From sequence record OZ346151.1: 64,000 bases of DNA; one strand, 5' to 3'. This DNA comes from a phage. A model generated the notes under the pieces. The model saw only the letters and a list, made by a program, of their open reading frames with translations, was not told where the DNA came from and searched no databases. Shown here piece by piece: positions 47,434 through 64,000 of the stretch (position 1 is its first letter; each line of letters opens with the position of its first letter). The position numbers were made by a program, and so were the translations under genes.

Positions 47434-47435
47434 GC

Positions 47436-47481: not shown

Positions 47482-47522
47482 TTATACTGTTAACACTGAA
47501 CTAATGCATAGGAGTTAAAACC

Positions 47523-47768
47523 ATGGCAGCACTAATCACCAAATATTATGCCCCTACCAACACCAAAAGCGCCCGTATCATGGTAAAAGGCTTCGGACGT
47601 AAAAAGGTGTACACCTGGGATTATGCCTTAGACACGGAAGACAACTACACCAACGCAATGACCGATTTTATTAATGAACTAAATAAGCAGATCTTGACAA
47701 GTTATAAAGTGACCGATATTGCTTATATAGGTGAAGGCGGGATCTGTTTTGTAGGCATTGTGAAATAG
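47523..47768 (+). CDS. hypothetical protein (81 aa)
   Basis: TAGGAGTTAAAACC then ATG (same 20-nt RBS/start context as the 51767 gene). Confidence 0.45.
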   Translation: MAALITKYYAPTNTKSARIMVKGFGRKKVYTWDYALDTEDNYTNAMTDFINELNKQILTSYKVTDIAYIGEGGICFVGIVK

Positions 47769-47815
47769 TTATTTTTTCGGTGGTCCTGGTTGCAGGGCCA
47801 TCTATAAAGATAATT
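47768..47815 (+). promoter_or_regulatory. diverged variant of the palindromic promoter element
   Basis: GGTCCTGGTTGCAGGGCCATCTATAAAGATAAT: same architecture with GTTGCA in place of TTGACA. Confidence 0.35.
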
Positions 47816-47842
47816 TATTAACACCATGAAAGGAGAAAGTAC

Positions 47843-48196
47843 ATGATCAGCGGGGCAAGTTTTATTATTGGCGCTATTGCTACGGCTTTAATTGTAAATA
47901 AGATCCAGGATAAAAAGGAAAGAGGAAGTACCGCCCTTGCAGAATATCCATTTTGGGCATTCAACGATAACGAAGATTATATTATAAAGTATAAAAATAA
48001 AGAAGGTGACCAAGTAACACCGCGACCGATCCCGGCTTACAAAATGCAGGAAACACTATACCGCCTGGAGGCGGGTGGCGCAAAAATTGTAGACTTTTGG
48101 GGATACGACCACACAGATCAGGAAGTTATAAAGCGCCGTATCCGGGCTATTCAGGCCAATATTGAAGTTAGCAAGGGGGGAATATATGAAAATTAA
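47843..48196 (+). CDS. membrane-anchored hypothetical protein (117 aa)
   Basis: AAAGGAGAAAG RBS; N-terminal hydrophobic helix ISGASFIIGAIATALIV. Confidence 0.45.
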   Translation: MISGASFIIGAIATALIVNKIQDKKERGSTALAEYPFWAFNDNEDYIIKYKNKEGDQVTPRPIPAYKMQETLYRLEAGGAKIVDFWGYDHTDQEVIKRRIRAIQANIEVSKGGIYEN

Positions 48197-48383
48197 TTTC
48201 GAGAAAATTGTAAAGCGCCCTCATGATTCCGAAGAGCTGCCAGAACGCCGCCAGCGTAACAATAAACTGAATAAGCCAAAAAGGTTTGGGAAGATCTGGC
48301 GTAATCATTATGATCGTAAATTGCCCGGCCTACTTTTGGAACGTGAACGACAGGCAGAACGATACCGCCATAAAGACAAATAA
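48186..48383 (+). CDS. small highly basic protein (about 65 aa)
   Basis: ATG after AAGGGGGG; Arg/Lys-rich. Confidence 0.4.
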   Translation: MKINFEKIVKRPHDSEELPERRQRNNKLNKPKRFGKIWRNHYDRKLPGLLLERERQAERYRHKDK

Positions 48384-48391
48384 CAACCAAC

Positions 48392-48420
48392 GCCCCGCCA
48401 TTGTGCGGGGCTTTTTATTT
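48392..48420 (+). terminator. rho-independent terminator
   Basis: GCCCCGC-cattgt-GCGGGGC hairpin followed by TTTTTATTT. Confidence 0.65.
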
Positions 48421-48540
48421 CTATCCTACGAATAGCGCCCCTGGTTGGCCCTGTAAGCGCCAAAAAGGCCCCCACCTATGCAATCGCCCCTTTAACCTGA
48501 AAACATCGCCCAGGGCCGTTTCATGGCGTTAAAAATATCA

Positions 48541-48568
48541 TTGACATCGTCAACAGGTTAGCTATACT
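48541..48568 (+). promoter_or_regulatory. sigma70-like promoter (TTGACA-16-TATACT)
   Basis: Near-consensus hexamers upstream of the 48601 gene. Confidence 0.5.
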
Positions 48569-48600
48569 AACCACATCAAAGAGAGAAAGGAGTAAACGCC

Positions 48601-48861
48601 ATGCGTAAATTAAAAAATTTTGATAAAGTTGATGTTATCCTGAATAATTTTTACTACTGCAACAACAAGGCTATTTGGTGGCGTGATAGTTCCACCGATA
48701 AAGTCAGGGCGCGCTTTCTTCAGGGGCACTGGCAAGGCCGCCCAGTGATTAAAATCATGGGGCAATCGGTAGCGTTTAAAAATTGCCGCCGTGTTGATGA
48801 CGTTGAGGAGATTTTAAACATTTTGCGCCACAATAATTTAAAAAATAGTGTTGACAAGTAA
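48601..48861 (+). CDS. hypothetical protein (86 aa)
   Basis: AAAGGAGTAAACGCC then ATG. Confidence 0.45.
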   Translation: MRKLKNFDKVDVILNNFYYCNNKAIWWRDSSTDKVRARFLQGHWQGRPVIKIMGQSVAFKNCRRVDDVEEILNILRHNNLKNSVDK

Positions 48862-48878
48862 GCCTCAATAAGTATACT
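48851..48878 (+). promoter_or_regulatory. sigma70-like promoter (TTGACA-16-TATACT) overlapping the 3' end of the preceding gene
   Basis: Same hexamer pair as the 48541 promoter. Confidence 0.45.
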
Positions 48879-48935
48879 TAAACACACAGGCGGGAAAACT
48901 TCCCGCCACTAACAAAGAAAATAGGAGAAAATATC

Positions 48936-49559
48936 ATGACCACCGTTAACATTACCGCAGGTTACAATTTATCTTTCGACGTGCTGACCGACGAACAAAA
49001 AGAAAAAGCCGTTGAAATGGTCCGCGAAAGAGAAGAACACAGCGGGGATAACTTTTTTGCAGAAAGTGTAATTGAATACTATAAAGAATATGTTTTTCCA
49101 GAGTATGGCCTTGAAGATACCGAAGTACATTGGTCAGGCTTTTGGTGCCAGGGTGACGGCGCGTCAATCAGTGCTGAAAACGTGGATTTAGAAAAATTTT
49201 TACGTAAAGTAAAGGCCCTGACCAAGTTCCGATCAATTCGTCACTTGTTCGGCACAATGCACGATGGCGAGTTATCAGCCAGTGTTGAACGCGACAAGTA
49301 CAGCCATTACAGCCATGAAAACACTGTAAGCGGGTACATTGATACCACTTGGCTAGATCTGACCGCCAAACAAGAAAACAAAGTGGAAGACCTGGAAGAA
49401 CTGATCACCGAGACGGTACGGGAGCTATCCCGCAAGGTTTACGTAGACCTGGAGGAGGCCTATCTAGAACAGTTCACCGCAGAAAACCTGATCGGCCTTA
49501 TCGAGGCCAATGATTGGCGGTTTGATGTCGATGAATATGGTGAGATGACTTTTTCATAA
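48936..49559 (+). CDS. acidic hypothetical protein (207 aa)
   Basis: AATAGGAGAAAATATC then ATG; no confident family assignment. Confidence 0.5.
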   Translation: MTTVNITAGYNLSFDVLTDEQKEKAVEMVREREEHSGDNFFAESVIEYYKEYVFPEYGLEDTEVHWSGFWCQGDGASISAENVDLEKFLRKVKALTKFRSIRHLFGTMHDGELSASVERDKYSHYSHENTVSGYIDTTWLDLTAKQENKVEDLEELITETVRELSRKVYVDLEEAYLEQFTAENLIGLIEANDWRFDVDEYGEMTFS

Positions 49560-49567
49560 ATAAAGTG

Positions 49568-49595
49568 TTGCAATAACCTAAAAACCTGCTATATT
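49568..49595 (+). promoter_or_regulatory. sigma70-like promoter (TTGCAA-16-TATATT)
   Basis: Hexamers read directly upstream of the 49650 gene. Confidence 0.4.
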
Positions 49596-49649
49596 AAAAC
49601 TCAAGGGGGCAAGACGTTTGCCCCAACACAAAACAAAGAGGATAACATC

Positions 49650-50030
49650 ATGAAAAACACTACCAAGGCTATTGACACCGTTATGTTTAACCTGGTTACA
49701 TTCCGTGAAGATATGAAAGATCTTCCTCGTGAAACAGTGTGCGACCATATCGAAAACTATCGCAAACTAATCAAAGAGTTGCCTTTAAAACGTGATCAAT
49801 ATGCGGCTAACGCCATGCTTAATGCCATGATCAAAAAGATGATCCAGTGTGATTTAACCCTGGCCTATGATTATGCAGGCGGTCGTTTTGCAGTATACAA
49901 TCAGCCCGTGCCCGGTATGAGCACCACCGAAGAATTGCACGCGCTCAATCTAAAACAAGACGTGTGGGATAGTATGCCTCGCGTGGTGGTATGGGTAGAA
50001 AGCGGAAAGATTTACGGCGATAATTTTTAA
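49650..50030 (+). CDS. hypothetical protein (126 aa)
   Basis: AAGAGGATAACATC then ATG. Confidence 0.45.
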   Translation: MKNTTKAIDTVMFNLVTFREDMKDLPRETVCDHIENYRKLIKELPLKRDQYAANAMLNAMIKKMIQCDLTLAYDYAGGRFAVYNQPVPGMSTTEELHALNLKQDVWDSMPRVVVWVESGKIYGDNF

Positions 50031-50037
50031 TCAGGTA

Positions 50038-50067
50038 GCAGGCGGCATATTTGCCGCCTTATTGTTA
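50038..50067 (+). terminator. rho-independent terminator
   Basis: GGCGGCA-tattt-TGCCGCC hairpin followed by TTATTGTT. Confidence 0.55.
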
Positions 50068-50094
50068 ATCAGAACTGTAAAAGAGGTACATAGA

Positions 50095-50466
50095 ATGGAA
50101 TTTATTATTTTGGCTGTATTGGTTGCCTTGTTTAACGCCTGGATCGCTGGCAAGATGGGAAGATCCGCCTTTTTATGGTTTATTATATCTATTTTCCTGG
50201 GGGTGGTTGCAACTATTGTATTGGTTATCCTTGCAATTGTTGACAAGGGGAATAATAGAAAGGGTAAAGTATTTTCAGACCTGTACGACGCTCAAACGTT
50301 TGTCAACGCCTATTATAGTGATCTTCCAGTCTCCCTACGTTGCAGCCTTGCACAACAGGTTTTCGATGAAGCTAAAACCAGAGATCACGCCCATGAGATT
50401 TGTTTAACTGAGGCGGATCGCCTATTTGAGAGGAATAGAAAATATGTGGACCAGCCGTTTAAATAA
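50095..50466 (+). CDS. membrane protein with two predicted TM helices (about 123 aa)
   Basis: ATG after AAAGAGG; hydrophobic segments FIILAVLVALFNAWIAG and FLWFIISIFLGVVATIVLVILAIV. Confidence 0.45.
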   Translation: MEFIILAVLVALFNAWIAGKMGRSAFLWFIISIFLGVVATIVLVILAIVDKGNNRKGKVFSDLYDAQTFVNAYYSDLPVSLRCSLAQQVFDEAKTRDHAHEICLTEADRLFERNRKYVDQPFK

Positions 50467-50576
50467 TGCCACGTTAATTAACCCCTTTAGTAAAGATTTG
50501 AAGCCAGCCGCCTGGCGGGATGGATTCAATAACGAACGCTTTATTTTCAGGCCTGATCTTGAGGAATTTTATAACA

Positions 50577-50804
50577 ATGGATCGAACAACAGCGGAGATA
50601 ATTTTTCTTGTGGTGTGTGTCGTGATAGGACTCCTGGGGGCCATTGTAGATCGCGTCACTACTACCAGAAGGAAAGGGGAGACGATGACAACCAAGGATA
50701 AGCCCCGCACCGATAAGGTGCGCCGTGTTATGGTATGGCTTGAGATCATCGCCCTTGAAATATTGTTAGGCGTAGGGATGTATTTTATCTCTGTAAGTAA
50801 CTGA
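50577..50804 (+). CDS. small membrane protein with two TM helices (about 75 aa)
   Basis: ATG after GAGGAA; hydrophobic N- and C-terminal segments; preferred over the overlapping alternative frame 50426..50701. Confidence 0.4.
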   Translation: MDRTTAEIIFLVVCVVIGLLGAIVDRVTTTRRKGETMTTKDKPRTDKVRRVMVWLEIIALEILLGVGMYFISVSN

Positions 50805-50947
50805 TAACGGCCCCCGATCCCTGGGGGGCCTAACTTTTTTCAAAAAATTTTTCTTCCGGGGTGTTGCAATCCGGTCCTGAATATGGATAATAACAATCAA
50901 CGGGGAAACATCCCCACCAACACAAAAACCAGAAAGGAGAAACAAAA

Positions 50948-51148
50948 ATGAGCAACAATATCCGCGTTATTAACTTCAAAAAAGAAGAAAAAATTGCCGT
51001 GCTGATTGACGGTCAAGAAATCTTCAAGGGCGACTATGAAGATCATCAAACGGCGATTAGTATCACTCGCGTGATTGGTTACCATAATTTTTACCCCCAA
51101 GGCGCTGAGGCGGCGGTTAAACGAATCAAAGAGATTGTAGGCCTGTAA
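50948..51148 (+). CDS. hypothetical protein (66 aa)
   Basis: GAAAGGAGAAACAAAA then ATG. Confidence 0.45.
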   Translation: MSNNIRVINFKKEEKIAVLIDGQEIFKGDYEDHQTAISITRVIGYHNFYPQGAEAAVKRIKEIVGL

Positions 51149-51151
51149 AAT

Positions 51152-51197
51152 TTATTTTTAGATGGCCTTGACTCTAGGGCCATCAATAAAGTAAATT
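51152..51197 (+). promoter_or_regulatory. 46-bp palindrome-containing promoter element, copy 3
   Basis: TTTATTTTTAGATGGCCTTGACTCTAGGGCCATCAATAAAGTAAAT; a few substitutions relative to copies 1 and 2. Confidence 0.5.
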
Positions 51198-51241
51198 TAA
51201 ACCCTGTTAAAATACCACGCAGTTAACAAGGAGTAATGATC

Positions 51242-51541
51242 ATGTTTATCCAGGCTAATAATCTTTATTTCTTTGATGGTCAGATCGTAGATGGTGTGGA
51301 AGTGGAGATCACTGGGTGCCCTGGTGGTCAGGCTATGACTTTTCGGAATAATGCCTTTGATGATTCTCATATCGTTATGAGAATGGAAGTTACAAAGCTG
51401 GACGACAAGAAAACGCTCATTGACTATTCCGTGAAAGATCATCCAGACTACCACATGATCTATGGTGATTTGTGCATTGTTGACCGTGACAAGGTGGGCG
51501 GCATTGTGATCGCTATTGTGAACGATGTTTTCTCTGTATAG
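51242..51541 (+). CDS. hypothetical protein (about 99 aa)
   Basis: ATG after AAGGAG. Confidence 0.45.
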   Translation: MFIQANNLYFFDGQIVDGVEVEITGCPGGQAMTFRNNAFDDSHIVMRMEVTKLDDKKTLIDYSVKDHPDYHMIYGDLCIVDRDKVGGIVIAIVNDVFSV

Positions 51542-51766
51542 TTCCGGCAAATGATGCAAAATAAGGCCCCTAGCAGGGCCTACAGCGATATAATCACATA
51601 AAGGCCATGCAACCGCATGGCCTTTATTATTTTGGCGTTACAGCGGCCCCAAGGCGCTTAAAAATTTTTTAAAGAAGTACTTGCATCAAGCCCTACAATA
51701 TGGATAATAGGACGTGTCAGGGGGGGGAGGCCCCAATCATTAACCGGATAGATAGGAGTTAAAACC

Positions 51767-52051
51767 ATGGCTATTGTTACCGCTGGCGATGTAGTAGAAA
51801 TGGAAGCAAAATACTTAAAAGCGGGTATGCATATCCTACGCAACGATCTTGAACTGGTCCTGACAATGGTTGACTATAACCCAGGGCAAGATTATCCAAG
51901 TGTTGACTACTTTTTTGAGTATGTTGATGAAGAGTTGAAAGAGGATGAGGCCTATTGCGGTGAGTTCTGCAACTTCTTTTGTCCTGATGAGGTTGTAAAG
52001 GTTATCTATCAACCTGGCGTAGCTTTCCCGCTGCACGCTATCAATAAATAA
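51767..52051 (+). CDS. hypothetical acidic protein (94 aa)
   Basis: TAGGAGTTAAAACC then ATG. Confidence 0.45.
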   Translation: MAIVTAGDVVEMEAKYLKAGMHILRNDLELVLTMVDYNPGQDYPSVDYFFEYVDEELKEDEAYCGEFCNFFCPDEVVKVIYQPGVAFPLHAINK

Positions 52052-52055
52052 ACCT

Positions 52056-52080
52056 GGCGGGGGCCTTTTCGGCCCCCGCC
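52056..52080. terminator. strong GC hairpin, terminator candidate (weak T-tract on + strand)
   Basis: GGCGGGGGCC-tttt-GGCCCCCGCC perfect 10-bp stem; shares the AACCTGGCGGGG motif found four times in 45.9-46.3 kb. Confidence 0.35.
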
Positions 52081-52114
52081 TGAAATTATGAAAAATAAAA
52101 AGAGGCAAACTATC

Positions 52115-52348
52115 ATGATGGAACAAATTAAACGCGCTGAGGCTATTAATGGCAATGTAATCTATTTTGTCAGCAAAAACGAAAAAGGCGTACCCTATGC
52201 GGCGGTAATAGTACAGCCTGACGGCGATTATTGGTGCACTGTGTACGGCGCTTATTCTTTTGGGCGTCCAGTGCATGATAAAATTTTGAAAGTAGCGAAC
52301 CCTACCGGGAAAAATATTACAGCAGAAAAATTTTTTGAAAAAAGTTGA
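52115..52348 (+). CDS. hypothetical protein (about 77 aa)
   Basis: ATG after AAAGAGG. Confidence 0.45.
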   Translation: MMEQIKRAEAINGNVIYFVSKNEKGVPYAAVIVQPDGDYWCTVYGAYSFGRPVHDKILKVANPTGKNITAEKFFEKS

Positions 52349-52424
52349 CATGACCATATAAAACTGTAGTATATAAATCAAAGGGGGCAACAAGCCCCAC
52401 CAACCACAAAGAGGATAAAAAATC

Positions 52425-52604
52425 ATGGCTATTATTGCAAAGACCGAGATCGTAGGCTTAGATTCTATTCTCCTCGCATATGAGGAAGCTATAGAAATGT
52501 ATGTGGTTTCCTATGGTGAGTATATCCGTGAATATGAATCTATTGATCTAGCTTTTGAATGTTATATTCGCCAGGTTAATAAAGCGTACGATGATTATCG
52601 TTAA
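52425..52604 (+). CDS. small hypothetical protein (59 aa, below the ORF-track cutoff)
   Basis: AAGAGGATAAAAAATC then ATG; fits the spacing of the surrounding small-gene array; coordinates hand-counted. Confidence 0.35.
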   Translation: MAIIAKTEIVGLDSILLAYEEAIEMYVVSYGEYIREYESIDLAFECYIRQVNKAYDDYR

Positions 52605-52695
52605 AATAGTTTGACAACAAACAACCATCTAACAAAGCATAATACATAAGGTGGTAGAATGATCCGCCACCCGGAACAAAGAAGAGGTAAACACC

Positions 52696-52941
52696 ATGAA
52701 AAGCAATAAAGGTTATAACGGTTACAAAAACAAAACTCATTGGAATGTAAGCCTTTGGATTAATAACGATGAGTCATTGTACCGGTTGGCCCAAGGATTT
52801 ATTAACGCTAATGCTAATCGTAATGATGCGGCGCGGGATATGATGCTTTTTCTGGAGCTAACCGGACAAGATAAGACCCCGGACGGCTTCAAGTACAGCA
52901 CTACGGCGATCCGTGCCGCGATGGTTGGAATGAAACACTAA
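52696..52941 (+). CDS. hypothetical protein (81 aa)
   Basis: AGAAGAGGTAAACACC then ATG. Confidence 0.45.
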   Translation: MKSNKGYNGYKNKTHWNVSLWINNDESLYRLAQGFINANANRNDAARDMMLFLELTGQDKTPDGFKYSTTAIRAAMVGMKH

Positions 52942-53259
52942 AAGCACATAGCCGCCAGATCTCAGAATTTACGTACGCTCACCAGTCTATAGCCTGCTAA
53001 GTATTTATTCCAACCATAGAATAACGGAATAGTCAATACCTGCATAAAATAATTATTCGTGTAAACTGCATAACATAAATCGGCTAGGATGTCAACATTT
53101 TTCGTAAACAGCTCGAAATTATAACGGTGAGTTATAATAAACAGAGAAATCTTTAGTCGTCTAATGTTTACTGTACATTACTATACTGACTGGAATCATT
53201 AGATGACTAAGAGAAAGATAAGAAATCATTAACAATGCAATTGTTTTATTCGTAACAAT

Positions 53260-53454
53260 AAGGCAACTATGCAAACGGATGGCATGGCGCGACGGAGTCG
53301 CGACATAATATAAAAGCAGTAACCATCACCCCCGTGATAGTTTGTCTGCAAACTATTAATCAGATCATAGTTGCCTTGTATTTAGTTAATCATGACATAA
53401 CAAGCAAGGCAACTATAGATCTGCTAATAGTTGCCCTGCTTTTATATTATGTCA
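53260..53454. repeat. nested inverted repeats forming a large imperfect palindrome
   Basis: 18-bp perfect inverted repeat GACATAATATAAAAGCAG at 53302-53319 and 53437-53454 enclosing the 12-bp inverted repeat ATAGTTGCCTTG / CAAGGCAACTAT (53367-53378, 53405-53416); the AAGGCAACTAT motif occurs 4 times in alternating orientation. Confidence 0.55.
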
Positions 53455-54984
53455 TAGATTATTAGCCTGTTAATTGTTAGTCAGTCAAATCAACAACGTT
53501 ATCATTTCAGTCTTTATTGTTGTTGATCGTTATTGTTATCATGCAAACGAATGGCATGGCTTATCATTTTTGAGTAAACAATCTATACGTGAACAGTGAG
53601 GCATGCAATAGTAAGGGCGGGAATAATGAGAGTGTAAACTGTCAAGGGTAATGTCAATTATATCAATCGTGTCAGTTATGTCACCATTATGTCAGCAGAG
53701 TTTTTCTCCTCTTTGTCAAGTGCTGCATGCCCACACAAATAGTAAGAAATATAATTGTTATGTGCGTAAACAGTAACTCATGTTATCAATCCCTGTATGT
53801 ATCGCCAGTGGTGCGCATAATGGGTATTATGTTAAATTGCCCGTAATGATAATGGTTCTCACAATGATAGGTATTCTCATTCCCCCACACAAAATAGATT
53901 GCAAATGTTGTGCCACTATGTGAACGGCCTCACCTATTAATTTGCCTCACTGCCTCGATATTTGAGAATTATCATAAGAATGAGAAGTATTCCCATTTCG
54001 TCCGCCTGGCAGCACTCCAGTCGCTACGGCTCAGAACAGGGCAGAATTGTGTCCATTCAGATATTTCTGTCTGGCTCTTCAGGTCTGTGTGGGAAAAGTC
54101 CACCTCTCTGGCGGGGCATGGGGTCATGACGGGAAAATTGCAGGTCAATTAAAAAATTTACGTGGTGTATGAAGCGCTCTTCAGGTAAGGCATGTATTAT
54201 GGGATGAAACCCTCTTCAGGCAATGATATTTGTGGGTGTGATATTTGCTGGAAAGCCAGATATGACGGGACTCCCGGCGGGGCAGGGGTAGTACAGACAG
54301 GGGAAATATGGAGGATGTGGTTAGGTGAATTGATCAGACAGGTAGAGTATGGAATATGTTACAGGTATGTTAAATAGGGCGGCTGAATATCTGTAGGATT
54401 TGTGTGTAAAATCAAAGACTTAAGTGGTGTTGTGGTATTTTCTATAAATAATTCAAGTTTAATAGGTAATATTTGTCTCTATTCGCTTTGTGTGGTAAAC
54501 AGATTCAGATGAGATTGGTTTACAAGCGTATACATAATATACAAATTAAAGATACAAGAAACCCCCCTCCCCCTTCGGCTACCATTCACCTTTTCCTCTG
54601 ACTGGTACTTAAACACTTATTCAGACTCTTCAGGTTATCACCCATATATCATATGGCAGTGACTGGTGTCCTCCGGCCCCTCTTTCGTCACCCGTCCGCT
54701 TCGCCATGCTAATGCCATAGCCAATGGTTCGGTTGTTCACCCTGTTCACTCAGGTGTATCTCCATACCCCTTCAAAACGAAGAGAACAGAAAACCCGAAT
54801 TACTCGGTAAAAGAAAAGAGAAGAACTTAATTTTATCAGGATAGGCAAGAATGTCAAGGCATGACTGCTCACTAAACAAGCAAACAGTCATGTGTGGGAG
54901 GTAAGTGATTGTGGTGGTAGGAAATTTAGTTGAAAGATGTGTTATAGGTGCTTCCAGCACTTTAGCCGGGCAGCTAATTGTGTG

Positions 54985-55894: not shown

Positions 55895-56194
55895 CTATAC
55901 CCATGAGGGCTTATCAAGGTTGGAGTAGCTGAAAGGTGTCAAAAGGTGACTGTCAAAATCTCTCAAACTATCTAAATCTTTTTCCTCGTCCTGACACCAT
56001 CTGTGCCTACATTTATTGTTGTAGTGCATAGAATGCATAGCGTTCTGCAACTTAACAGGTACAAGTGATTCAGGAGTAGATAGTATTGTTGGGTATGCCA
56101 GAATCACCTCAAACAGTGGAAACACATCGAAACTAAAGTCTACCTCTGCAGAGGTTGATGGCATATAGGAGTATTTAGCCGCCTTTGTAGACAT
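55895..56194 (-). CDS. hypothetical protein (about 99 aa)
   Basis: ATG after GAGGTGG. Confidence 0.4.
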   Translation of the reverse strand: MSTKAAKYSYMPSTSAEVDFSFDVFPLFEVILAYPTILSTPESLVPVKLQNAMHSMHYNNKCRHRWCQDEEKDLDSLRDFDSHLLTPFSYSNLDKPSWV

Positions 56195-56202
56195 AATCCA
56201 CC

Positions 56203-56529
56203 TCACACAGGTTTGATAATACCTTTACCGAATAATTCTTCGTATCTAATCTTATCCGGATCCCACTCTTGGATAATTTCGAAGACAATATCCAACCCAG
56301 GGATAATCACTTCTCCAGTGTCAAGTTTGGCAAGAACAAAACCAGAAGGCTGAATGGTTTCCCAGTTGCGCCGATTGGAATAGAAGACCTCGAAAATATC
56401 GCCGACCTTTATCTGTTGATCAAGATGTTCAAGATTCTCTTTCATATAGACGCAGCGGATTTTTCGTGCAGGCCATAGACCACCTGCATCACGTTCATTT
56501 AGCTCTTTTACAGTAATCGGTATACCCAT
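56203..56529 (-). CDS. hypothetical protein (108 aa)
   Basis: ATG start; followed downstream by terminator hairpin. Confidence 0.45.
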   Translation of the reverse strand: MGIPITVKELNERDAGGLWPARKIRCVYMKENLEHLDQQIKVGDIFEVFYSNRRNWETIQPSGFVLAKLDTGEVIIPGLDIVFEIIQEWDPDKIRYEELFGKGIIKPV

Positions 56530-56552
56530 CTCAAATCTCCTTCATAGATAGT

Positions 56553-56582
56553 AAAAAGAGGGGCCCAAGCCCCCCTCTTTGT
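56553..56582 (-). terminator. rho-independent terminator within the leftward array
   Basis: GAGGGG...CCCCTC hairpin flanked by A-tract and T-tract, just downstream of the 56585 gene stop. Confidence 0.5.
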
Positions 56583-56584
56583 CA

Positions 56585-56890
56585 TCATTCTACAGAGCGT
56601 TTGAACAGAATGTCTGCCTCAGACATGTGCTCAACCTCTTCTTCGATTTTAGCGCGACGTTTTTCAGCCTCATAGCGAATATCGAACTCGGTAGCCACCA
56701 GAGATTTGATGAATTTAGGAGAATACAGGTGATCCTGCTTCTCAACGAGAATGATATCCTTAATGGCATCTTTCAGATCTTTAATCTGAAGTTGGAGTTC
56801 TACCAGTTCTTCGATTGTTTTGCGAAGGCGATCACGCTCTGCAGTGTCAGAAGGAAGAGAGGTGAACAGTTCAACTTTAGATTTAGCCAT
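56585..56890 (-). CDS. coiled-coil hypothetical protein (101 aa)
   Basis: ATG start; charged heptad-rich sequence. Confidence 0.45.
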   Translation of the reverse strand: MAKSKVELFTSLPSDTAERDRLRKTIEELVELQLQIKDLKDAIKDIILVEKQDHLYSPKFIKSLVATEFDIRYEAEKRRAKIEEEVEHMSEADILFKRSVE

Positions 56891-56918
56891 AGTAAGAGTC
56901 TCCTTATGTTGTTTTAAA

Positions 56919-57170
56919 TTAACGTTCTACAAAAATACCGTTCAGTTCAATAACCAGGAATTTCTGGTCTTCACTATCGTCTCGTGCCAGCACCTCACAG
57001 ACGTATCGGTCATCCCCATCATCATCGCAGTCAAATACAAGACTGAGGACTTTATCATGGTAAACCTTCGCCACTACCGCCTCGTAAGTATTGCCGATTG
57101 TGAATCCAAGATAATCTCCGATGCATTTGACAACAACATGGTCTCCAGCATTTAAGTCAATCTTCGTCAT
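56919..57170 (-). CDS. hypothetical protein (about 83 aa from ATG)
   Basis: ATG (MTKIDLNAGDHVV) coupled to an upstream small ORF. Confidence 0.4.
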   Translation of the reverse strand: MTKIDLNAGDHVVVKCIGDYLGFTIGNTYEAVVAKVYHDKVLSLVFDCDDDGDDRYVCEVLARDDSEDQKFLVIELNGIFVER

Positions 57171-57325
57171 TACTGCGCTCCTTGGGTAATAATACTGTAT
57201 GTAAAACTTTAACCAGAGATGTGAATAACGCCCCAAAACACACCGATAGCGCTAAAACAGACAAGGCCATCATTAAAGCTTCAGTAAAATCAGTCATTCC
57301 TCACCTCTTGTTAGCCACTATACTA

Positions 57326-57589
57326 TCATTTATCCTTTTCGTCAAGAACTTTTTTAAATCTTTCAGGGATATCTCCCGTTCTTAGATAGTTCATGACCTC
57401 GCAAGGTTCCCACTTGAATTTCTTACAGAGCAGGGCGGCTGAGATTGTTTCATTGCGAAAAGAAAGGATATTAATATCCCACTCTGAGAACCCCAACTTC
57501 CGAAGGGTAGCTACAGAAATCCTCACCGCAACCCAGCAGCAAAAACATGCAACAAACGCCACTGCTACAACCCACATCAGGATGTTCAT
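57326..57589 (-). CDS. small membrane protein (87 aa)
   Basis: N-terminal hydrophobic helix ILMWVVAVAFVACFCCWVAV. Confidence 0.45.
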   Translation of the reverse strand: MNILMWVVAVAFVACFCCWVAVRISVATLRKLGFSEWDINILSFRNETISAALLCKKFKWEPCEVMNYLRTGDIPERFKKVLDEKDK

Positions 57590-57678
57590 ATAAGCACCTT
57601 ACTGAAATACAAGACACAGTGTTAAGGTTACTGACCAGCAAATAATTAGCAGGACCATTGCAACCTTGGCAAGATTTA

Positions 57679-57966
57679 TCATAGTGCCTCTAAGATTTCA
57701 TATCCTTCAGGTCGAAATACAAGCCACTCCGTGGCTCCGTTTGGTCGATACGCTTTATACAGAACAACCTGATCTCGGCACATGCACATGGCTACATAGT
57801 TTTCATCCACACCTGCAGCCTGCATTGCATCTTCTTCTCCGGCAACTGCTTTGCTTACAACTTCCTTGGTAGGTAGGTGTGCGATCAGCTCGTCACCATC
57901 ATTAATTCCAAAATGACTGAGTTCTCCATTGGTATCTTTAATCTTAATCTTAACCAGATCTTTCAT
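57679..57966 (-). CDS. small protein of the MK-start / acidic-C-terminus family (95 aa)
   Basis: N-terminus MKDLVKIKIK, C-terminus YEILEAL; overlapping stop/start with neighbour. Confidence 0.45.
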   Translation of the reverse strand: MKDLVKIKIKDTNGELSHFGINDGDELIAHLPTKEVVSKAVAGEEDAMQAAGVDENYVAMCMCRDQVVLYKAYRPNGATEWLVFRPEGYEILEAL

Positions 57967-58295
57967 TAGTCTTTCTCCAGGTTCAAAGGTCCTAAGATTT
58001 CATATGCCAGATTAGAAGTTACCAGAGGGTCTTCTGCATCTTTAGTATTGTACCACCCGTGAATAACCAGAGTCCCACTTTGTTTCATATCCAACTGGAA
58101 CTGTTCTGCAGTTTCCTCATCCAGCTCCAAGATTTCCATAAGGTATTTGATGTTAGGAAGGTATGCAGCTGTTACAGTTCCCTCCACCAAACCTTCGGGC
58201 CAACCTACATCCGGATGACAAGTAGGAACCAGGTTGGTCAACTTAATGGTGTACGCTTTTTCTGCACGAGCCTTCAGTAACGGGTCAATCTTCAT
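57966..58295 (-). CDS. hypothetical protein (109 aa)
   Basis: Overlapping stop/start on both sides. Confidence 0.45.
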   Translation of the reverse strand: MKIDPLLKARAEKAYTIKLTNLVPTCHPDVGWPEGLVEGTVTAAYLPNIKYLMEILELDEETAEQFQLDMKQSGTLVIHGWYNTKDAEDPLVTSNLAYEILGPLNLEKD

Positions 58296-58645
58296 TATTC
58301 GTCCTCCTCTTCGGTGCCTGCTTCCAGTAATAAGTTAAGAATATCTTCTGCACAAGGCTCATAGAACTCTTGGCCTTCATTATCGATGATTTTGTAGTCA
58401 TCTCCACGAATAATCAGGGGATCACTCTCAAAATTATCGAGACCTTTAACAACGACAACACGATCGATTGCCATCATTGTAAGAACTTTATCGACATCTT
58501 CCTCTGCTACACCATACTGCAGCAGAATGTCTTTGGTAGGAGGAACAGCATCCACCACAACGCCGTTACCAAAACCTTCTGGAAGTTTAGCTAAAATATC
58601 TTCCGGAACCACATTCACATCAAAACCGGTAATTTCTACTTTCAT
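58295..58645 (-). CDS. small acidic protein (116 aa)
   Basis: N-terminus MKVEITGFDV; acidic C-terminus. Confidence 0.45.
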   Translation of the reverse strand: MKVEITGFDVNVVPEDILAKLPEGFGNGVVVDAVPPTKDILLQYGVAEEDVDKVLTMMAIDRVVVVKGLDNFESDPLIIRGDDYKIIDNEGQEFYEPCAEDILNLLLEAGTEEEDE

Positions 58646-58906
58646 TTACAGCACCTCTTCGTCAACTACTTCATAAAAATGGCCTGGGATTGCAATAGCG
58701 TTCTCACCTTCACCTGCAAACACAGTTCCGTCAAGAATCAACATCATAAGAATTTCTGTAATATCCTCTTCCGGAACGTTGCCAAAACCTTTAATCAGCT
58801 CGTAGGTTGGAATATTTACATCTAAGATGTCACCATCTTTAGAACGGAAATCAACACCGTCCTGAATCTCTGCCGTTTCAAGGTTTTTCAATTTAATCTT
58901 CATCAA
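58646..58906 (-). CDS. small acidic protein (86 aa)
   Basis: N-terminus MMKIKLKNLE, C-terminus YEVVDEEVL. Confidence 0.45.
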   Translation of the reverse strand: MMKIKLKNLETAEIQDGVDFRSKDGDILDVNIPTYELIKGFGNVPEEDITEILMMLILDGTVFAGEGENAIAIPGHFYEVVDEEVL

Positions 58907-58982
58907 TCGGTCTCCTGTCTTGTTAAGATGAAGGTATTATTTCACACAGGGTTGGCGTTGTCAACACCTGTGTGCAAGAAAA

Positions 58983-59378
58983 TTACTGAAACAGTGCGGA
59001 TAAATTACCTTCTGGTGGGAACTTATCTGCCAAAAACGGTGTTAGCACAGTAGCCTTCTGAAGATCTGGGGTCCACTCGTTGTTCAGAACATCCCAGTAG
59101 TACGCAATGTTGCTGTGTGGGTGCCGCATTACGAACTTTTTCCCTTCGTAGTCGTCTGAAACCTCTACAGAAGAAATAACAACAGAATCTTCAAGGGTTT
59201 CTTCATAGAAAGATCCCCCTTCAAATTTCCAACGAGATGCAAGAGCCCCTGCCTTGAACGCTGCAGATAACGGACTGTCGGCAAGAACATACATTTCTTG
59301 CACTCTGTCGCTGCGATCTTTGCTTCTTACGTTGTATACAGTATCTGAGCTATACTCAACACGGTATAGGCTTACCAT
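58983..59378 (-). CDS. hypothetical protein, paralogue of 61190..61588 (131 aa)
   Basis: Shares H-P-x-S ... YW ... W-T-P segment with 61190..61588. Confidence 0.5.
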   Translation of the reverse strand: MVSLYRVEYSSDTVYNVRSKDRSDRVQEMYVLADSPLSAAFKAGALASRWKFEGGSFYEETLEDSVVISSVEVSDDYEGKKFVMRHPHSNIAYYWDVLNNEWTPDLQKATVLTPFLADKFPPEGNLSALFQ

Positions 59379-59710
59379 TACCGCACCTCCTCAATAACTT
59401 CCACATCTGAACCTACCACAAATGCAAAAGGACAGGTTTCATGAAAGACATCTGGATCGCCGCCAAGCTTGCTAACAATCTCTCCACCACTAATAAACAC
59501 AAGCTCACCGATATTCATCAGATTGCTGAAATAGTACCCATAATGATTAAAGAATGCAGCAGGGTCAGGTAGACTGGTAGCCTCAAGCACTACATCGGTT
59601 GAGGTTACTTTCTTATCATAACCTCTCGCCTTTTGAGATGCAAGATCTGCAGAATCCTCAGGAGACCGGAGATGCACAGGAATTGTTTCACCAATAAAGC
59701 GTACTTTCAT
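59378..59710 (-). CDS. hypothetical protein (about 110 aa from second ATG)
   Basis: Preferred start gives MKVRFIGE, matching the family N-terminal pattern. Confidence 0.4.
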   Translation of the reverse strand: MKVRFIGETIPVHLRSPEDSADLASQKARGYDKKVTSTDVVLEATSLPDPAAFFNHYGYYFSNLMNIGELVFISGGEIVSKLGGDPDVFHETCPFAFVVGSDVEVIEEVR

Positions 59711-59714
59711 ATTA

Positions 59715-59978
59715 TCACCCAACAACCATAGCTTCAAAAGGAGTCATGAACGAATAAACGGCATCATCATCTGCTTCAGGGAATGCTCCCAAAGACTTCA
59801 TATCTGAACCCTTGACAAATACAAGGTTTTGATCAAAGGCTTCTTGGGGGTCAATCCGATACATATTTCGTAGAATATCGCTTACCTCCTCATCAAGAGG
59901 TGAGTATGCTGTGCACGTTTTTCCGATCAAGCTTTGAGAATCAGGGTATCCACCTGAAGTTTTAAAATAAACAATCAT
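59715..59978 (-). CDS. hypothetical protein (87 aa)
   Basis: ATG start in compact array. Confidence 0.4.
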   Translation of the reverse strand: MIVYFKTSGGYPDSQSLIGKTCTAYSPLDEEVSDILRNMYRIDPQEAFDQNLVFVKGSDMKSLGAFPEADDDAVYSFMTPFEAMVVG

Positions 59979-60069
59979 ATAGTATCACCTCTGGTAAGAG
60001 ATTGGGATTCCTTTCCCACAAATAATTACAAATCTTCCTTATCGAGGAAGTATGCTAATCCAAGCAGGA

Positions 60070-60339
60070 TTATTCCTCTACAATCTCATACACATCAGGA
60101 GTTACAATCAACTCTTCTCCGTTACCCGGTGCAACAAACACCACCAAACCTTCAGGTGTGTGCTTTTTAGCCATCTCGATAACATCTTCTCGCAGAGCTG
60201 GCTCCATCAGATCAAAACCTTCACCCAGGGCATCACGAACCACCTTCATATAGTCAACTGGTTGTGCTTCAACAATCATGCCTTCAACCAGTCCACAGTT
60301 TTTGTCTGCCAGCTCAGTTTTGAATAATTTAATTTTCAT
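60070..60339 (-). CDS. small acidic protein (89 aa)
   Basis: N-terminus MKIKLFKTE, C-terminus YEIVEE. Confidence 0.45.
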   Translation of the reverse strand: MKIKLFKTELADKNCGLVEGMIVEAQPVDYMKVVRDALGEGFDLMEPALREDVIEMAKKHTPEGLVVFVAPGNGEELIVTPDVYEIVEE

Positions 60340-60476
60340 TTAGAGGTCTCCTCAATTATTTGATATTAATAGCCGTAACCTAACACATTAACTACAACTG
60401 CGATTGCAAACATAATTTCAAAGCATGCAATCTCTACATTTGGGACTAATTTCTTAATCACACCCATTGTAGCACC

Positions 60477-60797
60477 TCATTCTCCAAAGTCAATCTTTAC
60501 TTTGCCTTTCCCCTTACCTTTCTTTCCACCGCATTTAGCCAGCTGACGTGCTGCAACATCTACCATACGGTCAGTTGCCTCGTAAGCATCACTGCCTTTA
60601 GCCTTGGCAATAACTTCTTTTCCAGAATTGTCAAAAATGAACGCCATAACTTCCTGGTGATCATTTTCAACTTTTACACTTACACGTGCATAGTTAACAG
60701 AGGGATGTAAACGCTCCAGCTTGGACATTTTGCGGGAAATAAAAGATACCATACCTTCTGTGATTTCTACATTGTTGCCAGTGATTTCAATTTGCAT
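60477..60797 (-). CDS. hpf: ribosome hibernation promoting factor / RaiA (YfiA) family homologue
   Basis: N-terminus MQIEITGNNVEITEGM closely matches bacterial HPF MQLNITGNNVEITEAL; length 106 aa with KLERL, V-x-V-K-V-E and ARQLAK segments at corresponding positions; Lys/Gly-rich C-terminal tail. Confidence 0.7.
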   Translation of the reverse strand: MQIEITGNNVEITEGMVSFISRKMSKLERLHPSVNYARVSVKVENDHQEVMAFIFDNSGKEVIAKAKGSDAYEATDRMVDVAARQLAKCGGKKGKGKGKVKIDFGE

Positions 60798-60881
60798 AAC
60801 GTGTTCCTTTTAAGGAAGAGGGAATAACTATCTCTCTTTGAAAACAATGATACTAAATCTGAAGCGTTGTGTCAACAGTTT

Positions 60882-61172
60882 TTACAGCTTGTTGTCGATA
60901 GTTTTTAAAATATCCACAGCAAGATCTGCCATTTTTCGAACATACTCTGCAAACTCAACAGGATCCTTGATCAAAGAATTCACAGGGTCGTACCCTAGAG
61001 CGTTTAAAATGGCTGCAGCATCTACAACCTTCTCATCATTTGCGAAGATCTCTCCGTCAAACTTGTAGGTCCATTTTGAGTCAACCTTAGCAGAGCAGGG
61101 TTTGTCCATGCTTGTTACACCATCGTCTTTAAACTCTCCTGCGTTATCAATATTTAGAATTAAATCCATCAT
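60882..61172 (-). CDS. hypothetical protein (96 aa)
   Basis: ATG start in compact array. Confidence 0.45.
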   Translation of the reverse strand: MMDLILNIDNAGEFKDDGVTSMDKPCSAKVDSKWTYKFDGEIFANDEKVVDAAAILNALGYDPVNSLIKDPVEFAEYVRKMADLAVDILKTIDNKL

Positions 61173-61189
61173 GGTGACACCTCACTGTT

Positions 61190-61588
61190 TCAGTTTAGCT
61201 TTTCTTCAACAACCCCATAACTTGGGGCAGAGTCAAGAGCTTTCTGGTTTAAAAGTGGCGTAGCAGAATCTGCAAACGGTGTCCAAGTTTTTGTTCTGGA
61301 ATTCCAGTAATGCTTCACTCTGGAATCTGGATGCACTATAACAAAAACTTTTTCACTTGTCAACACATTAATTTCTTCTACACCCTTGCTGATAATTTCT
61401 CCGTCATAGCCCCCAGTCTGGTATCCTTCGTACCAGGTTCTTGCATAGGCATAGCCAGCCTGCCAGCATGCAGCCTCCTCCGAGGTGGAGACTACGTAGA
61501 AGTCTTTCTCAAATTCCGGAATACGCCCTTGCTTTACGCTCCAAGCTCCGCGAATTTTCATTGTTACTTTGAAAAGCTTGTTCTTCAT
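61190..61588 (-). CDS. hypothetical protein, paralogue of 58983..59378 (132 aa)
   Basis: VHPDSRVKHYWNSRTKTWTP parallels RHPHSNIAYYWDVLNNEWTP. Confidence 0.5.
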   Translation of the reverse strand: MKNKLFKVTMKIRGAWSVKQGRIPEFEKDFYVVSTSEEAACWQAGYAYARTWYEGYQTGGYDGEIISKGVEEINVLTSEKVFVIVHPDSRVKHYWNSRTKTWTPFADSATPLLNQKALDSAPSYGVVEEKLN

Positions 61589-61589
61589 A

Positions 61590-61844
61590 CTACCGCTCTA
61601 CAATCTCTACGTCTGTTCCTACACCGAAGGCATAGTAATGTTCTTCCCCAAAGTAATACTTGGGGACACCCGCTTTGATCAGATCTAACCCGCGAATAAA
61701 TACCACACCGTGTGATACAGTGGAATGCTTCTGACGCACAGGATCGTTGTCAGGCAACCATTCAAAGTACACCGCAGGTACAACCTTTCCCTTCAGGAAG
61801 GATTGTCCCAAGTAGACGTTAGAATCAAGAATTTTAACCTTCAT
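61590..61844 (-). CDS. small protein, paralogue of 61834..62061 (84 aa)
   Basis: MKVKILDSNVYLGQ ... TDVEIVER versus MKVKVLDSSFYIGQ ... EDAEIVED. Confidence 0.5.
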   Translation of the reverse strand: MKVKILDSNVYLGQSFLKGKVVPAVYFEWLPDNDPVRQKHSTVSHGVVFIRGLDLIKAGVPKYYFGEEHYYAFGVGTDVEIVER

Positions 61845-62061
61845 TCTCGTCCTCCACTATCTCTGCATCCTCACCAAGGGCAAAGTTGTAGGTCCACTGG
61901 CTGTCAAAGCAGTCCTGAGATGCACCAGCGGCAATAAGATCTGCACCTTTTATTTTTAAAAGGTCAGGATAATCTTCGTTAGGGATAGCGGTAAACACTT
62001 TCCCCACTAAGGGCTCCTGACCAATATAGAAGCTTGAATCTAAAACTTTAACTTTCATCAA
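61834..62061 (-). CDS. small protein, paralogue of 61590..61844 (75 aa)
   Basis: See paralogue; overlapping stop/start. Confidence 0.5.
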   Translation of the reverse strand: MMKVKVLDSSFYIGQEPLVGKVFTAIPNEDYPDLLKIKGADLIAAGASQDCFDSQWTYNFALGEDAEIVEDENEG

Positions 62062-62345
62062 CGGTCTCCCTCAGGCGGTTGTGGGACGTAAACACTGTTA
62101 CGAATATCGTCAGCAGTGTAGTAATAAGTGGTTCCAACCCTATCTCGGGCTGCAATGTACTCTGCTATACCAACAAGTGCCATTGATTTGGTGGCGTATC
62201 TTCCCCACTCGTTAGCTCCCCAGTAGAATTTAGACCAGTAGGGAATAAGACCGAACAAATATACCTTTTGACGAACTTCCCAGTAAGTGCCTTTTCCGAC
62301 AAGTTTAAACTCTACTTCACTACTGTTAATCTTTTTCATTATCAA
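62058..62345 (-). CDS. hypothetical protein (95 aa)
   Basis: Overlapping stop/start with neighbours. Confidence 0.45.
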   Translation of the reverse strand: MIMKKINSSEVEFKLVGKGTYWEVRQKVYLFGLIPYWSKFYWGANEWGRYATKSMALVGIAEYIAARDRVGTTYYYTADDIRNSVYVPQPPEGDR

Positions 62346-62638
62346 TCTCCCTCTACCGTGGTCGGATTGTCAGTAAGAAATTGAGCATTGGCTGGAGGCA
62401 CGCCTGACATTTTCCACACAACCATAAGTTTATAACCAGGCACTCTATTAAGTGCAGATCGAGTAGAGTTTGTGCACGTATACTTTCGCTTTCCAAACCC
62501 GTTCTCCATCATAATCCAGTACCCAGTATCTTTGTCACCAGGTATCGGTAGACCACCTTCATCAACCCACTGAATTGACCACGGCACGATGGCTACAGCT
62601 TTATATTTAAACTTTTTAAACCACTCAAAAAGTTTCAT
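62342..62638 (-). CDS. hypothetical protein (98 aa)
   Basis: ATG start coupled to an upstream small TM ORF. Confidence 0.45.
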   Translation of the reverse strand: MKLFEWFKKFKYKAVAIVPWSIQWVDEGGLPIPGDKDTGYWIMMENGFGKRKYTCTNSTRSALNRVPGYKLMVVWKMSGVPPANAQFLTDNPTTVEGD

Positions 62639-62938
62639 AATTCAGCCCCGCATAGACATAATCACTATAAATAGGCAAACAATGAATCCGAATGCCACGC
62701 CACCCATAAACGTTAATATTGATGCAATCATAGTCAATCAGCCTCGCCTGGCAACTCTTCTACCTTAACATGCCGAAAAGTGTTACCGTAATGGTTGATC
62801 CATGACATCAGCTCACTTTCTTGCTCTTCCTCTGGGATGAACTCTCGAATACTGACAAGTTTTAAGAAAACCTAATCACAATCTGCACCCATTCTACCAG
62901 ACAGACAATAGTGCTTCATAAAAACCCTCCCGCCCGGT

Positions 62939-63133
62939 TTAGAATATTGCTTCTTCCATTGCGCCTGAGAGCAACAAAGAGGTGATCTGGCTAACATTCA
63001 TCTCAGACTCTACTTCCTCCCCTTTGAAAGGTTCGCGGCAGAATAGGACTGTTTCAGGACTTTTACTTCGAACAATATAATACAAATCATTCAATGTGTT
63101 GTAGTAATAAGTGTTAAAACGTAAGTTTTTCAT
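62939..63133 (-). CDS. hypothetical protein (64 aa)
   Basis: Stop overlaps next start. Confidence 0.4.
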   Translation of the reverse strand: MKNLRFNTYYYNTLNDLYYIVRSKSPETVLFCREPFKGEEVESEMNVSQITSLLLSGAMEEAIF

Positions 63134-63417
63134 TTTCTAGTCCTCTTCTTAGATTTTTGGGGAGAAACGCTTTCTGCAATACGAGACAGACGTTCTTCTG
63201 AAGCCTTACCTACTCCAGGTTTTTTGAGTGGATTATCTTTATGACCACAATCCAACTGGATATTGGATACCTCTCCAACTTTGTAAGTCAATTCTAGCAA
63301 AAGGTTGTCGTCCTTGTCAAATGTTTTTACGATAAATTTTTTATCGTTCTCCTGAACTTCATATCTGGTACCTGCAGTATACAGCATGGTGCCATCAGCA
63401 TAGGATATCCAGATCAT
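63130..63417 (-). CDS. hypothetical protein with basic C-terminal tail (95 aa)
   Basis: Overlapping stop/start; Lys/Arg-rich C-terminus. Confidence 0.45.
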   Translation of the reverse strand: MIWISYADGTMLYTAGTRYEVQENDKKFIVKTFDKDDNLLLELTYKVGEVSNIQLDCGHKDNPLKKPGVGKASEERLSRIAESVSPQKSKKRTRK

Positions 63418-63761
63418 TGAGCCTCCTTTTGCTGCAACAGCATTAACTCTTTGTTAGAGATCTTTACTGCTGTTTTTATTGTTCCATCTTCACGAAACCA
63501 CGACCAGAACTCTACAGTGTCACCACTATCAAGTAAAGCATGCCCATGGTAAAAATCTTTGTCCTTAGACAGTTTCTCATCTATATCTGCATCAACACAT
63601 TCGTGATCCAGAGCATTTTGCCTGAACGCATCGGTTATGCCAATGCACGCCTTGCTCTCAAGACTGGTATATCCGATATCTTTTAATTCAGTTTCCCAAG
63701 TCCAGTACCCTATAAAAGCTAAAACAGCTACCCACAGTAATAACGTTTTAATCTTTGGCAT
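63414..63761 (-). CDS. membrane-anchored or secreted protein (115 aa)
   Basis: AGAGGTAGAGAGA then ATG; N-terminal hydrophobic helix KTLLLWVAVLAFIGYW; first gene of the leftward array. Confidence 0.5.
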   Translation of the reverse strand: MPKIKTLLLWVAVLAFIGYWTWETELKDIGYTSLESKACIGITDAFRQNALDHECVDADIDEKLSKDKDFYHGHALLDSGDTVEFWSWFREDGTIKTAVKISNKELMLLQQKEAQ

Positions 63762-64000
63762 TCTCTCTACCTCTTTCTTAGTTTATTTCACTATGGCACA
63801 TCCTTTGTGCCATATCTCAACTACTACTTAAATAGTAGTTCAAAATAGTGCAAAATTAACAGAAGTTGAACTACACCTAGTGCAACGGCGAGTATGTTAA
63901 TCTTAGAATCGAAAAACTTCTTAACTTTTACTCTAAAAGGTTCCTTAATGTCCTTTACGATCCTATCTATAGATGACCTCATATCTCTGATTACCATCCT

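Follow-up and report, generated by a model that had tools for sequence, protein, structure and literature searches.

In large lytic phages such as T4 and T5, the early regions contain blocks of small early or accessory genes. A block of this type is described here in a 64,000-nucleotide stretch of phage DNA (sequence record OZ346151.1, referred to below as the window). It is a leftward array of small genes at positions 57679–62339, in which 11 of the 15 genes belong to three paralogue families, designated A (five genes), B (four genes) and C (two genes), the remaining four, among them a homologue of HPF, being singletons. Like the blocks of T4 and T5, the array consists of dense, same-strand, coupled small open reading frames (ORFs) behind putative host-type promoters, most of them restricted to one lineage, and at least three of its members are dispensable in the laboratory host. 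To our knowledge, the array proteins have no sequence relation to characterised early proteins of T4 or T5. As phage accessory-gene blocks go, the array is typical; the finding is unsurprising and, taken alone, points to no new mechanism. What it provides is an assignment of some nine proteins labelled hypothetical, from a group of E. coli phages that is isolated very often and used in therapy, to two families with a predicted SH3-like fold, possibly to one superfamily. These proteins thereby gain testable properties, namely a predicted fold, paralogue-specific orthology and a natural deletion background.

The DNA of the window is that of a Vequintavirus, an E. coli myophage of the rV5-like type. 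Its region 56000–64000 is 99.0% identical to phage magaca, and about 120 phage records match this region over the full length at ≥80% identity. All plausible genes from ~54.9 kb to the window end lie on the minus strand. A preliminary description of the DNA had claimed a leftward array of small genes; this is borne out at 57679–62339 by 15 closely packed minus-strand genes, which also appear in the annotation of about 120 Vequintavirus genomes. Two annotated relatives, RudolfGeigy and magaca, possess the same gene set, labelled as hypothetical almost throughout. The genes are named below by their left ends in the window, and all of them are encoded by the minus strand.

The division into three families is the concordant outcome of all-against-all BLAST and phmmer comparisons of 25 proteins, of leave-one-out hidden Markov models (HMMs) searched against 538 window ORFs and of hhalign comparisons of 28 orthologue-enriched profiles, where 12 of 378 pairs scored at P ≤ 1.4e-4. 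The two pairs of paralogues singled out in the preliminary description hold, i.e. 61590/61834 (phmmer E = 4e-13, hhalign P = 2e-21) and 58983/61190 (phmmer E = 4e-11, hhalign P = 2e-15). Its idea of an expanded family is correct as far as paralogous expansion is concerned, which accounts for 11 of the 15 genes; it does not hold for a single family of ~25 proteins, since the array contains three families together with unrelated singletons.

Family A comprises, from right to left, 60070 (60070–60339, 89 residues, isoelectric point (pI) 4.4, beginning with MKIKL and ending with YEIVEE), 58646 (58646–58903, 85 residues, pI 4.1, from MKIKL to FYEVVDEEVL), 58295 (58295–58645, 116 residues, net charge −21), 57966 (57966–58295, 109 residues) and 57679 (57679–57966, 95 residues, ending with YEILEAL). 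In 58295 an acidic, helical extension continues the chain on the C-terminal side of the predicted barrel described below, and the YKIID strand is internal. The most divergent member, 57966, is extended at its N-terminus and has YTIKL as strand 1. The last four genes form a block, with 58646 as its first gene, that is translationally coupled by stop/start overlaps. The leave-one-out HMMs recovered four of the five members (E = 9e-4, and E = 1.4e-4, 9.5e-7 and 2.4e-5 for 58646, 58295 and 57679, respectively). The fifth, 57966, failed in this search (E = 0.17) and is connected to 58295 with P = 2.3e-8 in hhalign after addition of orthologues from divergent relatives; the link of 58646 to 58295 has hhalign P = 1e-12.

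Family B is formed by 61834 (61834–62058, 74 residues, pI 4.05, from MKVKV to AEIVEDENEG), 61590 (61590–61844, 84 residues, near-neutral, from MKVKI to VEIVER), 59715 (59715–59978, 87 residues, from MIVYF to FEAMVVG) and 59378 (59378–59710, 110 residues, from MKVRF to VEVIEEVR, with a long insert past strand 1). The start of 61834 is most likely the ATG at 62058 rather than the TTG at 62061, and its end codons overlap the start of 61590. All four members were recovered in the leave-one-out search (E = 7e-11, and E = 8e-13, 4e-6 and 6e-3 for 61834, 59378 and 59715), each as the best non-training match. The hhalign P-values within the family range from 2e-21 to 1.6e-5, with 59715 linked to 61834 at P = 3.3e-7 and 59378 to 61590 at P = 8e-9. 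Proteins of families A and B are 74–116 residues long and have no predicted membrane segment; eight of the nine are very acidic (pI 4.0–4.7, net charge −7 to −21), the exception being 61590.

The two members of family C are 61190 (61190–61588, 132 residues, pI 7.8) and 58983 (58983–59378, 131 residues, pI 4.7). This family shows no link to A or B, and neither a PDB sequence search nor Pfam gave relatives of it. The HMM searches added no further A or B members from the ORFs of the 64-kb window, and the profiles of 54985, 56203, 56919, 60882, 62058 and other genes have no significant link to the families. No family member has a Pfam, NCBIfam or functional PHROG match. The array contains no DNA-level repeats of note, which indicates that the duplications are old.

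In the PHROG collection, each window protein matches a PHROG of its own from end to end with E = 1e-27 to 1e-76: phrog_11868, 12359, 12155, 12457 and 12794 for family A, phrog_5009, 13661 and 13920 for family B and phrog_7379 for family C. The nine A and B proteins are spread there over eight separate families of unknown function, and only phrog_5009 unites members of the array (61590 and 61834, with a weak match of 59715). The five-member and four-member groupings, as well as the possible link between A and B, are not recorded in PHROGs.

The fold was predicted with AlphaFold2 on the family alignments for one member of family A (60070) and one member of family B (61590). The model of 60070 (predicted local distance difference test (pLDDT) score 93.2) has strands at residues 2–5, 22–27, 66–69, 76–79 and 84–88 and three helices at 30–60; that of 61590 (pLDDT 92.5) has strands at 2–5, 21–23, 47–51, 70–75 and 79–83. 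Structural comparison of the two models with known SH3-like domains finds a five-stranded SH3-like barrel in each, and families A and B are predicted to be SH3-like small beta-barrels with differing loop inserts. Both models match SH3-like domains (SH3, KOW/Spt5-NusG, PsaE, the C-terminal domain of retroviral integrase, OapB) over ~50 residues at 2.2–3.0 Å, and share with them a predicted RT-like loop and a short 3-10 turn preceding the last strand. They differ from known SH3-like domains in a ~30-residue insert of three helices between strands 2 and 3 in family A and in a ~18-residue distal-loop insert between strands 3 and 4 in family B. No match to Pfam SH3, KOW or LSM was obtained at E ≤ 1, nor to any other Pfam family apart from noise matches for one protein, and no proline-peptide-binding or KOW signature is evident in either family. 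A BFVD search with the 60070 model gave a sole confident match, the 95-residue orthologue of 57679 from another Vequintavirus (probability 1.00, template modelling score 0.56); it returned nothing significant beyond family A and no functionally described viral protein, and no specific structural relative emerged for the families. As modelled, A and B are narrowly distributed new members of the ubiquitous class of SH3-like small barrels.

The models also give a structural meaning to the shared termini. The N-terminal MK(I/V)K(I/L) is predicted to be strand 1 of the barrel (KIKL/KVKI) and the C-terminal (Y/V)E(I/V)(V/L)E to be strand 5 (YEIVE/VEIVE); by canonical SH3 topology, rather than by the model coordinates, these two strands would be adjacent in the sheet. 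A lack of structural similarity between members had been named beforehand as an outcome that would speak against a common family; this objection fails, as A and B share a predicted SH3-like fold with the termini as strands 1 and 5.

Whether the common fold means common descent depends on profile comparison. With deep profiles (72 A and 33 B sequences) hhalign aligned the families with P = 4.5e-4 and a score of 25.6 over 52 colinear columns covering strands 1–3, and in global mode with P = 2.9e-4 over 80 columns. The maximum among 38 decoy comparisons with other array profiles was 14.8, reversed B scored 8.0, and block-shuffled B reached 25.6 in 1 of 150 cases. From the deep-profile score, the shared fold and the interleaved positions of the genes, it appears probable, by a moderate margin, that A and B are remote homologues and constitute one superfamily. 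Alternatively, A and B could be independent inventions or acquisitions that converged on an SH3-like barrel, so that the array would hold three unrelated families and no nine-member superfamily. Consistent with such a convergence, the HMMs of A and B find each other's members only at non-significant E-values (0.9–1.5), the initial hhalign comparison gave P = 0.05, the BFVD search with the A model returned no B proteins at a significant E-value, and the loop inserts of the two families are placed differently. Colinearity of strands 1, 2 and 3, a score above all 38 decoys and 149 of the 150 block shuffles, the common fold class, the near-identical terminal strands and the interleaving of the genes in one array argue against it. 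We regard convergence as less likely than not, though it is the most serious of the alternatives considered here.

All three families are restricted in distribution. When A, B and C were used as queries against a word index of 5.8 billion proteins, nothing beyond relatives of the Vequintavirus type came up, and an exhaustive HMM search with family A among 1.84 billion cluster representatives gave 16 clusters in total; none of these searches yielded a distant informative homologue. In tblastn searches of phage genomes the sole family match outside Vequintavirus was a weak one (36% identity) in phage MagusPhagus. Two divergent relatives were identified. The first (L003, ~55% amino-acid identity) has five A genes, five B genes, one C gene and HPF, the fifth family B member being located at 4527–4775. 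The second (L007), a 140-kb contig with a ClpP-like protein 61% identical to that of Vequintavirus, keeps four A genes side by side in unchanged order, together with one B gene and one C gene, and has no HPF. Paralogue-specific orthologues and gene order are retained in both; as each paralogue has its own orthologue, the duplications are older than these lineages. L003 also contains an extra gene for a 98-residue protein (11389–11685; PF27050, Phage_P22_Y8K6), which separates its C gene from its A block. Two A-like genes (313–552 and 1070–1282) are present on a 4.9-kb contig (L015) of an unrelated phage type with a GP3_package small terminase, which suggests that family A has spread horizontally outside Vequintavirinae.

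Among six Vequintavirus genomes the ratio of non-synonymous to synonymous divergence (dN/dS) of the array genes is 0.04–0.26, i.e. they are under purifying selection; for the families the range is 0.04–0.23. In the same genomes dS of 61590 is ~0.9 as compared with ~0.2 in the flanking genes, which marks it as a recombinational hot spot of allelic divergence. P0069 and P0071, two proteins from the databases, join a 61834 N-terminus to a 61590 C-terminus; such chimeras indicate recombination between these tandem paralogues. A natural deletion of 3.8 kb is found in phage EduardKellenberger (L010, MZ501061.1; 6088–6555), where the N-terminus of a "putative glycosidase" is joined to the last ~27 residues of the 61190 orthologue. 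In window coordinates the deletion spans from ~61270 onward, past 64000, and removes most of 61190, as well as 61590, 61834 and ~12 other small genes, about 15 in all. Even so, the phage was recovered and propagated with K-12 as its host. At least three family members are, on the evidence of this deletion, dispensable on K-12.

A scan of 54–64 kb for sigma-70-like promoters, scored out of 12, gave five top sites (11/12 each), all of them on the minus strand and three of them intergenic. One (58936–58964, minus strand; TTGACA, 17 nt, extended −10 element TGnAATAAT) occupies the gap that precedes the four-gene A block, and another (60847–60875, minus strand, 11/12) the gap upstream of HPF. Both are annotated as promoters in phage Gotham (PhagePromoter predictions). 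Many host-type promoters spread over the whole genome were reported in the rV5 genome paper, which contains no paralogue analysis (PMC3606486). A literature search found no Vequintavirus transcriptome or expression timing for rV5-like phages, and nothing on these genes, on rV5 paralogue families or on phage HPF.

The explanation we favour combines these observations, and as a whole we assign it a probability of roughly 60%. Ancient tandem duplications would have generated 11 of the 15 genes as three lineage-restricted families within a long leftward region of accessory genes, whose sigma-70-type promoters would be used by the RNA polymerase of the host. The A and B proteins, as SH3-like barrels with the shared motifs as their terminal strands, would be non-enzymatic binders, each for a different host (or phage) macromolecule, and this binding would tune host takeover or host range. 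They would be conditionally dispensable accessory factors rather than core components of replication or of the virion. No conserved residues of a catalytic type were seen in the family alignment, and there was no match in Pfam or NCBIfam. An effector role, as proposed in the preliminary description, is a plausible hypothesis.

Several points weigh against this explanation. Strong purifying selection together with a stable copy number is atypical of a family of effectors in a fast arms race. The folds are predicted from shallow, lineage-restricted alignments. The P-value of the deep A–B comparison is modest, hhalign P-values appear to be ~10-fold anti-conservative here, and shallow profiles gave only the P = 0.05 mentioned above. 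Taken together, the promoter scan gave no excess over shuffled sequences (27 sites as against 20.7 ± 5.1 expected), for which reason the two sites described are taken as suggestive only. Finally, the gene caller used for the comparison of glutamate-rich tails (see below) demanded a Shine-Dalgarno (SD) sequence before every start, which brings some circularity into that test.

The stable copy number would be explained differently if the paralogues were subunits of one hetero-oligomer. Small barrels of the Sm/LSm type form mixed rings, and an assembly comparable to these would account for copy number, orthology and coupling at once. The stop/start overlaps in the four-gene A block (58646, 58295, 57966, 57679), the low dN/dS and the retention of paralogues and their order in L003 and L007 (five and four A genes) are in line with this proposal. 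However, copy number differs between lineages (5, 4, 2), and two members of family B are naturally deletable. A single hetero-oligomer thus seems improbable to us, and separate binders with different partners remain preferred.

The strong acidity of the A and B proteins (all but 61590), along with their small size and their position under sigma-70-like promoters, raises another interpretation, that they are acidic mimics of nucleic acid which block DNA-targeting defences of the host, in the manner of the anti-restriction proteins Ocr, ArdA and Arn. No structural match of the Ocr, ArdA or Arn type was found among the model matches, and the acidity is in part driven by SD sequences. An Ocr-like role is further disfavoured by the reported sensitivity of Vequintavirinae to restriction-modification, to which they are exceptionally susceptible, apparently without effective protection (PMC8594841). 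Mimicry of this kind is improbable, slightly more so than a hetero-oligomer.

The contribution of SD sequences leads to a further alternative, namely that the shared termini reflect translation signals only (a Lys codon, AAA or AAG, in the second position and an SD at the end) and no homology. The N-terminal similarity is indeed less extensive than had been claimed. Instead of at least ten consecutive genes with MK(I/V)(K/E)(I/L/F) starts, only 58295, 58646, 60070 and 61590 have this motif in its strict form, and they are not consecutive; 59378 (MKVRF), 61834 (MKVKV) and HPF (MQIEI) come close to it. The KIK(I/L) strand of 57679 and 57966 is internal, and the first MK of these proteins belongs to the N-terminal extension in front of it and not to strand 1, as the translation-signal explanation would have it. 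Motif enrichment was evaluated with a crude gene caller on 14 array genes and 99 genes elsewhere in the window. The strict N-terminal motif was present in 3 of the 14 array genes and in none of the 99 others (p = 0.002), and the C-terminal motif [YFWVA][ED][IV][IVL][EDG] in 6 of 14 as against 1 of 99 (p = 8e-6). A start with MK occurs in 8 of 14 array genes and also in 14 of the 99 outside (14%), in keeping with a general signal.

The tails require a distinction between their very ends and the strand that precedes them. Over the whole window, a gene was counted as coupled if its stop fell between −12 and +8 nt relative to the start of the next gene. In coupled genes 26% of the four C-terminal residues are glutamate, in uncoupled ones 9% (p = 4e-6); when families A and B are excluded, the values are 23% and 8% (p = 1e-4), and at residues −10 to −6 the difference is absent. 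Many tails carry the SD of the next gene (e.g. ...GAGGAGGTGCGGTAATG at the 59378/58983 junction), and its GAGGAG is visible in several of them. The extreme acidic ends are thus for the most part a by-product of coupling at the coding level, seen throughout the genome. Of the acidic tails claimed to be shared, the enriched C-terminal motif stands, whereas the extreme acidic ends are largely embedded SD sequences. The aromatic/aliphatic strand before the tails is not such a by-product: Y84 is invariant in 21 of 21 family A sequences, the C-terminal strand motif is retained in distant lineages, and 60070 and 57679 keep it though they are followed by gaps of 91 nt and 89 nt; the 91-nt gap means that the tail of 60070 does not serve as the SD of a downstream gene. 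Besides, this strand of aromatic, acidic and two aliphatic residues lies outside the zone of the Glu excess in the last four residues, both motifs fall on strands 1 and 5 as predicted in a barrel model of high confidence, and the family relationships are significant over the full length. As a complete explanation, translation signals alone are largely refuted and have only a slight chance of being right. Under the explanation we favour, a preference for Lys as the second codon would be superimposed on strand 1, and the GAGG/GGAG of the next coupled gene's SD, falling within the final codons, would make the extreme tails rich in Glu. Such tails, as an embedded-SD by-product in operon-packed phage genes, call for caution in reading motifs from raw sequence.

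The HPF homologue was correctly placed inside the array. The gene at 60477–60797 (minus strand) is a singleton coding for a protein of 106 residues that matches PF02482 with 56.7 bits (cut-off 23.7, residues 3–89) and TIGR00741 with 56.8 bits (cut-off 40.9). The protein is of the short HPF/YfiA type and has an unusual Lys/Gly-rich tail (KCGGKKGKGKGKVKIDFGE). Among phage records, this HPF is essentially confined to Vequintavirus; as mentioned above, it is missing from L007. Membership of HPF in families A, B or C was considered and rejected (hhalign P = 0.2 to A and 0.27 to B). Binding to RNA or ribosomes is common among SH3-like barrels (KOW, ribosomal proteins, Sm), and the nine paralogues may in principle act, as a hetero-oligomer or as individual ribosome- or RNA-binding barrels, as co-evolving adaptors that together with the embedded phage HPF reprogram or shelter host ribosomes, which would constitute a new phage module of translation takeover but is the least probable of all the readings considered.

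Orthologues of 60070 are labelled "sigma 54 modulation factor" in several GenBank records (MN850612, PP464953, OQ626344 and others). An HPF/YfiA identity of 60070 was rejected: the protein has no PF02482 match, and its hhalign comparison with HPF gave P = 0.016 over 17 columns only. The predicted order of its elements (two strands, three helices, three strands) differs from the beta-alpha-beta-beta-beta-alpha order of HPF. The two proteins have in common that their genes are neighbours and that HPF, too, begins with a beta-strand (MQIEITG). Most probably the label was mis-transferred to 60070 from the adjoining HPF gene, as indicated by the lack of a PF02482 match and by the different predicted fold; the present analysis thus corrects a propagated mis-annotation.

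The other singletons of the array are a basic protein of 93 residues that starts with MKKIN (62058–62339), an acidic protein of 96 residues (60882–61172) and a hydrophobic peptide of 33 residues (60366–60467), all on the minus strand. A tRNA scan of 40–64 kb gave no tRNA genes. The name "Campylobacter phage" (host C. jejuni) is attached to 18 records with 94–98% identity to the window at 56000–64000, and the attribution of these records to a C. jejuni host looks doubtful. To the left of the leftward region, positions 43000–54500 of the window have a low coding density with many very short plus-strand ORFs, and the guanine-plus-cytosine fraction is lower there (0.38 at 52–54 kb).

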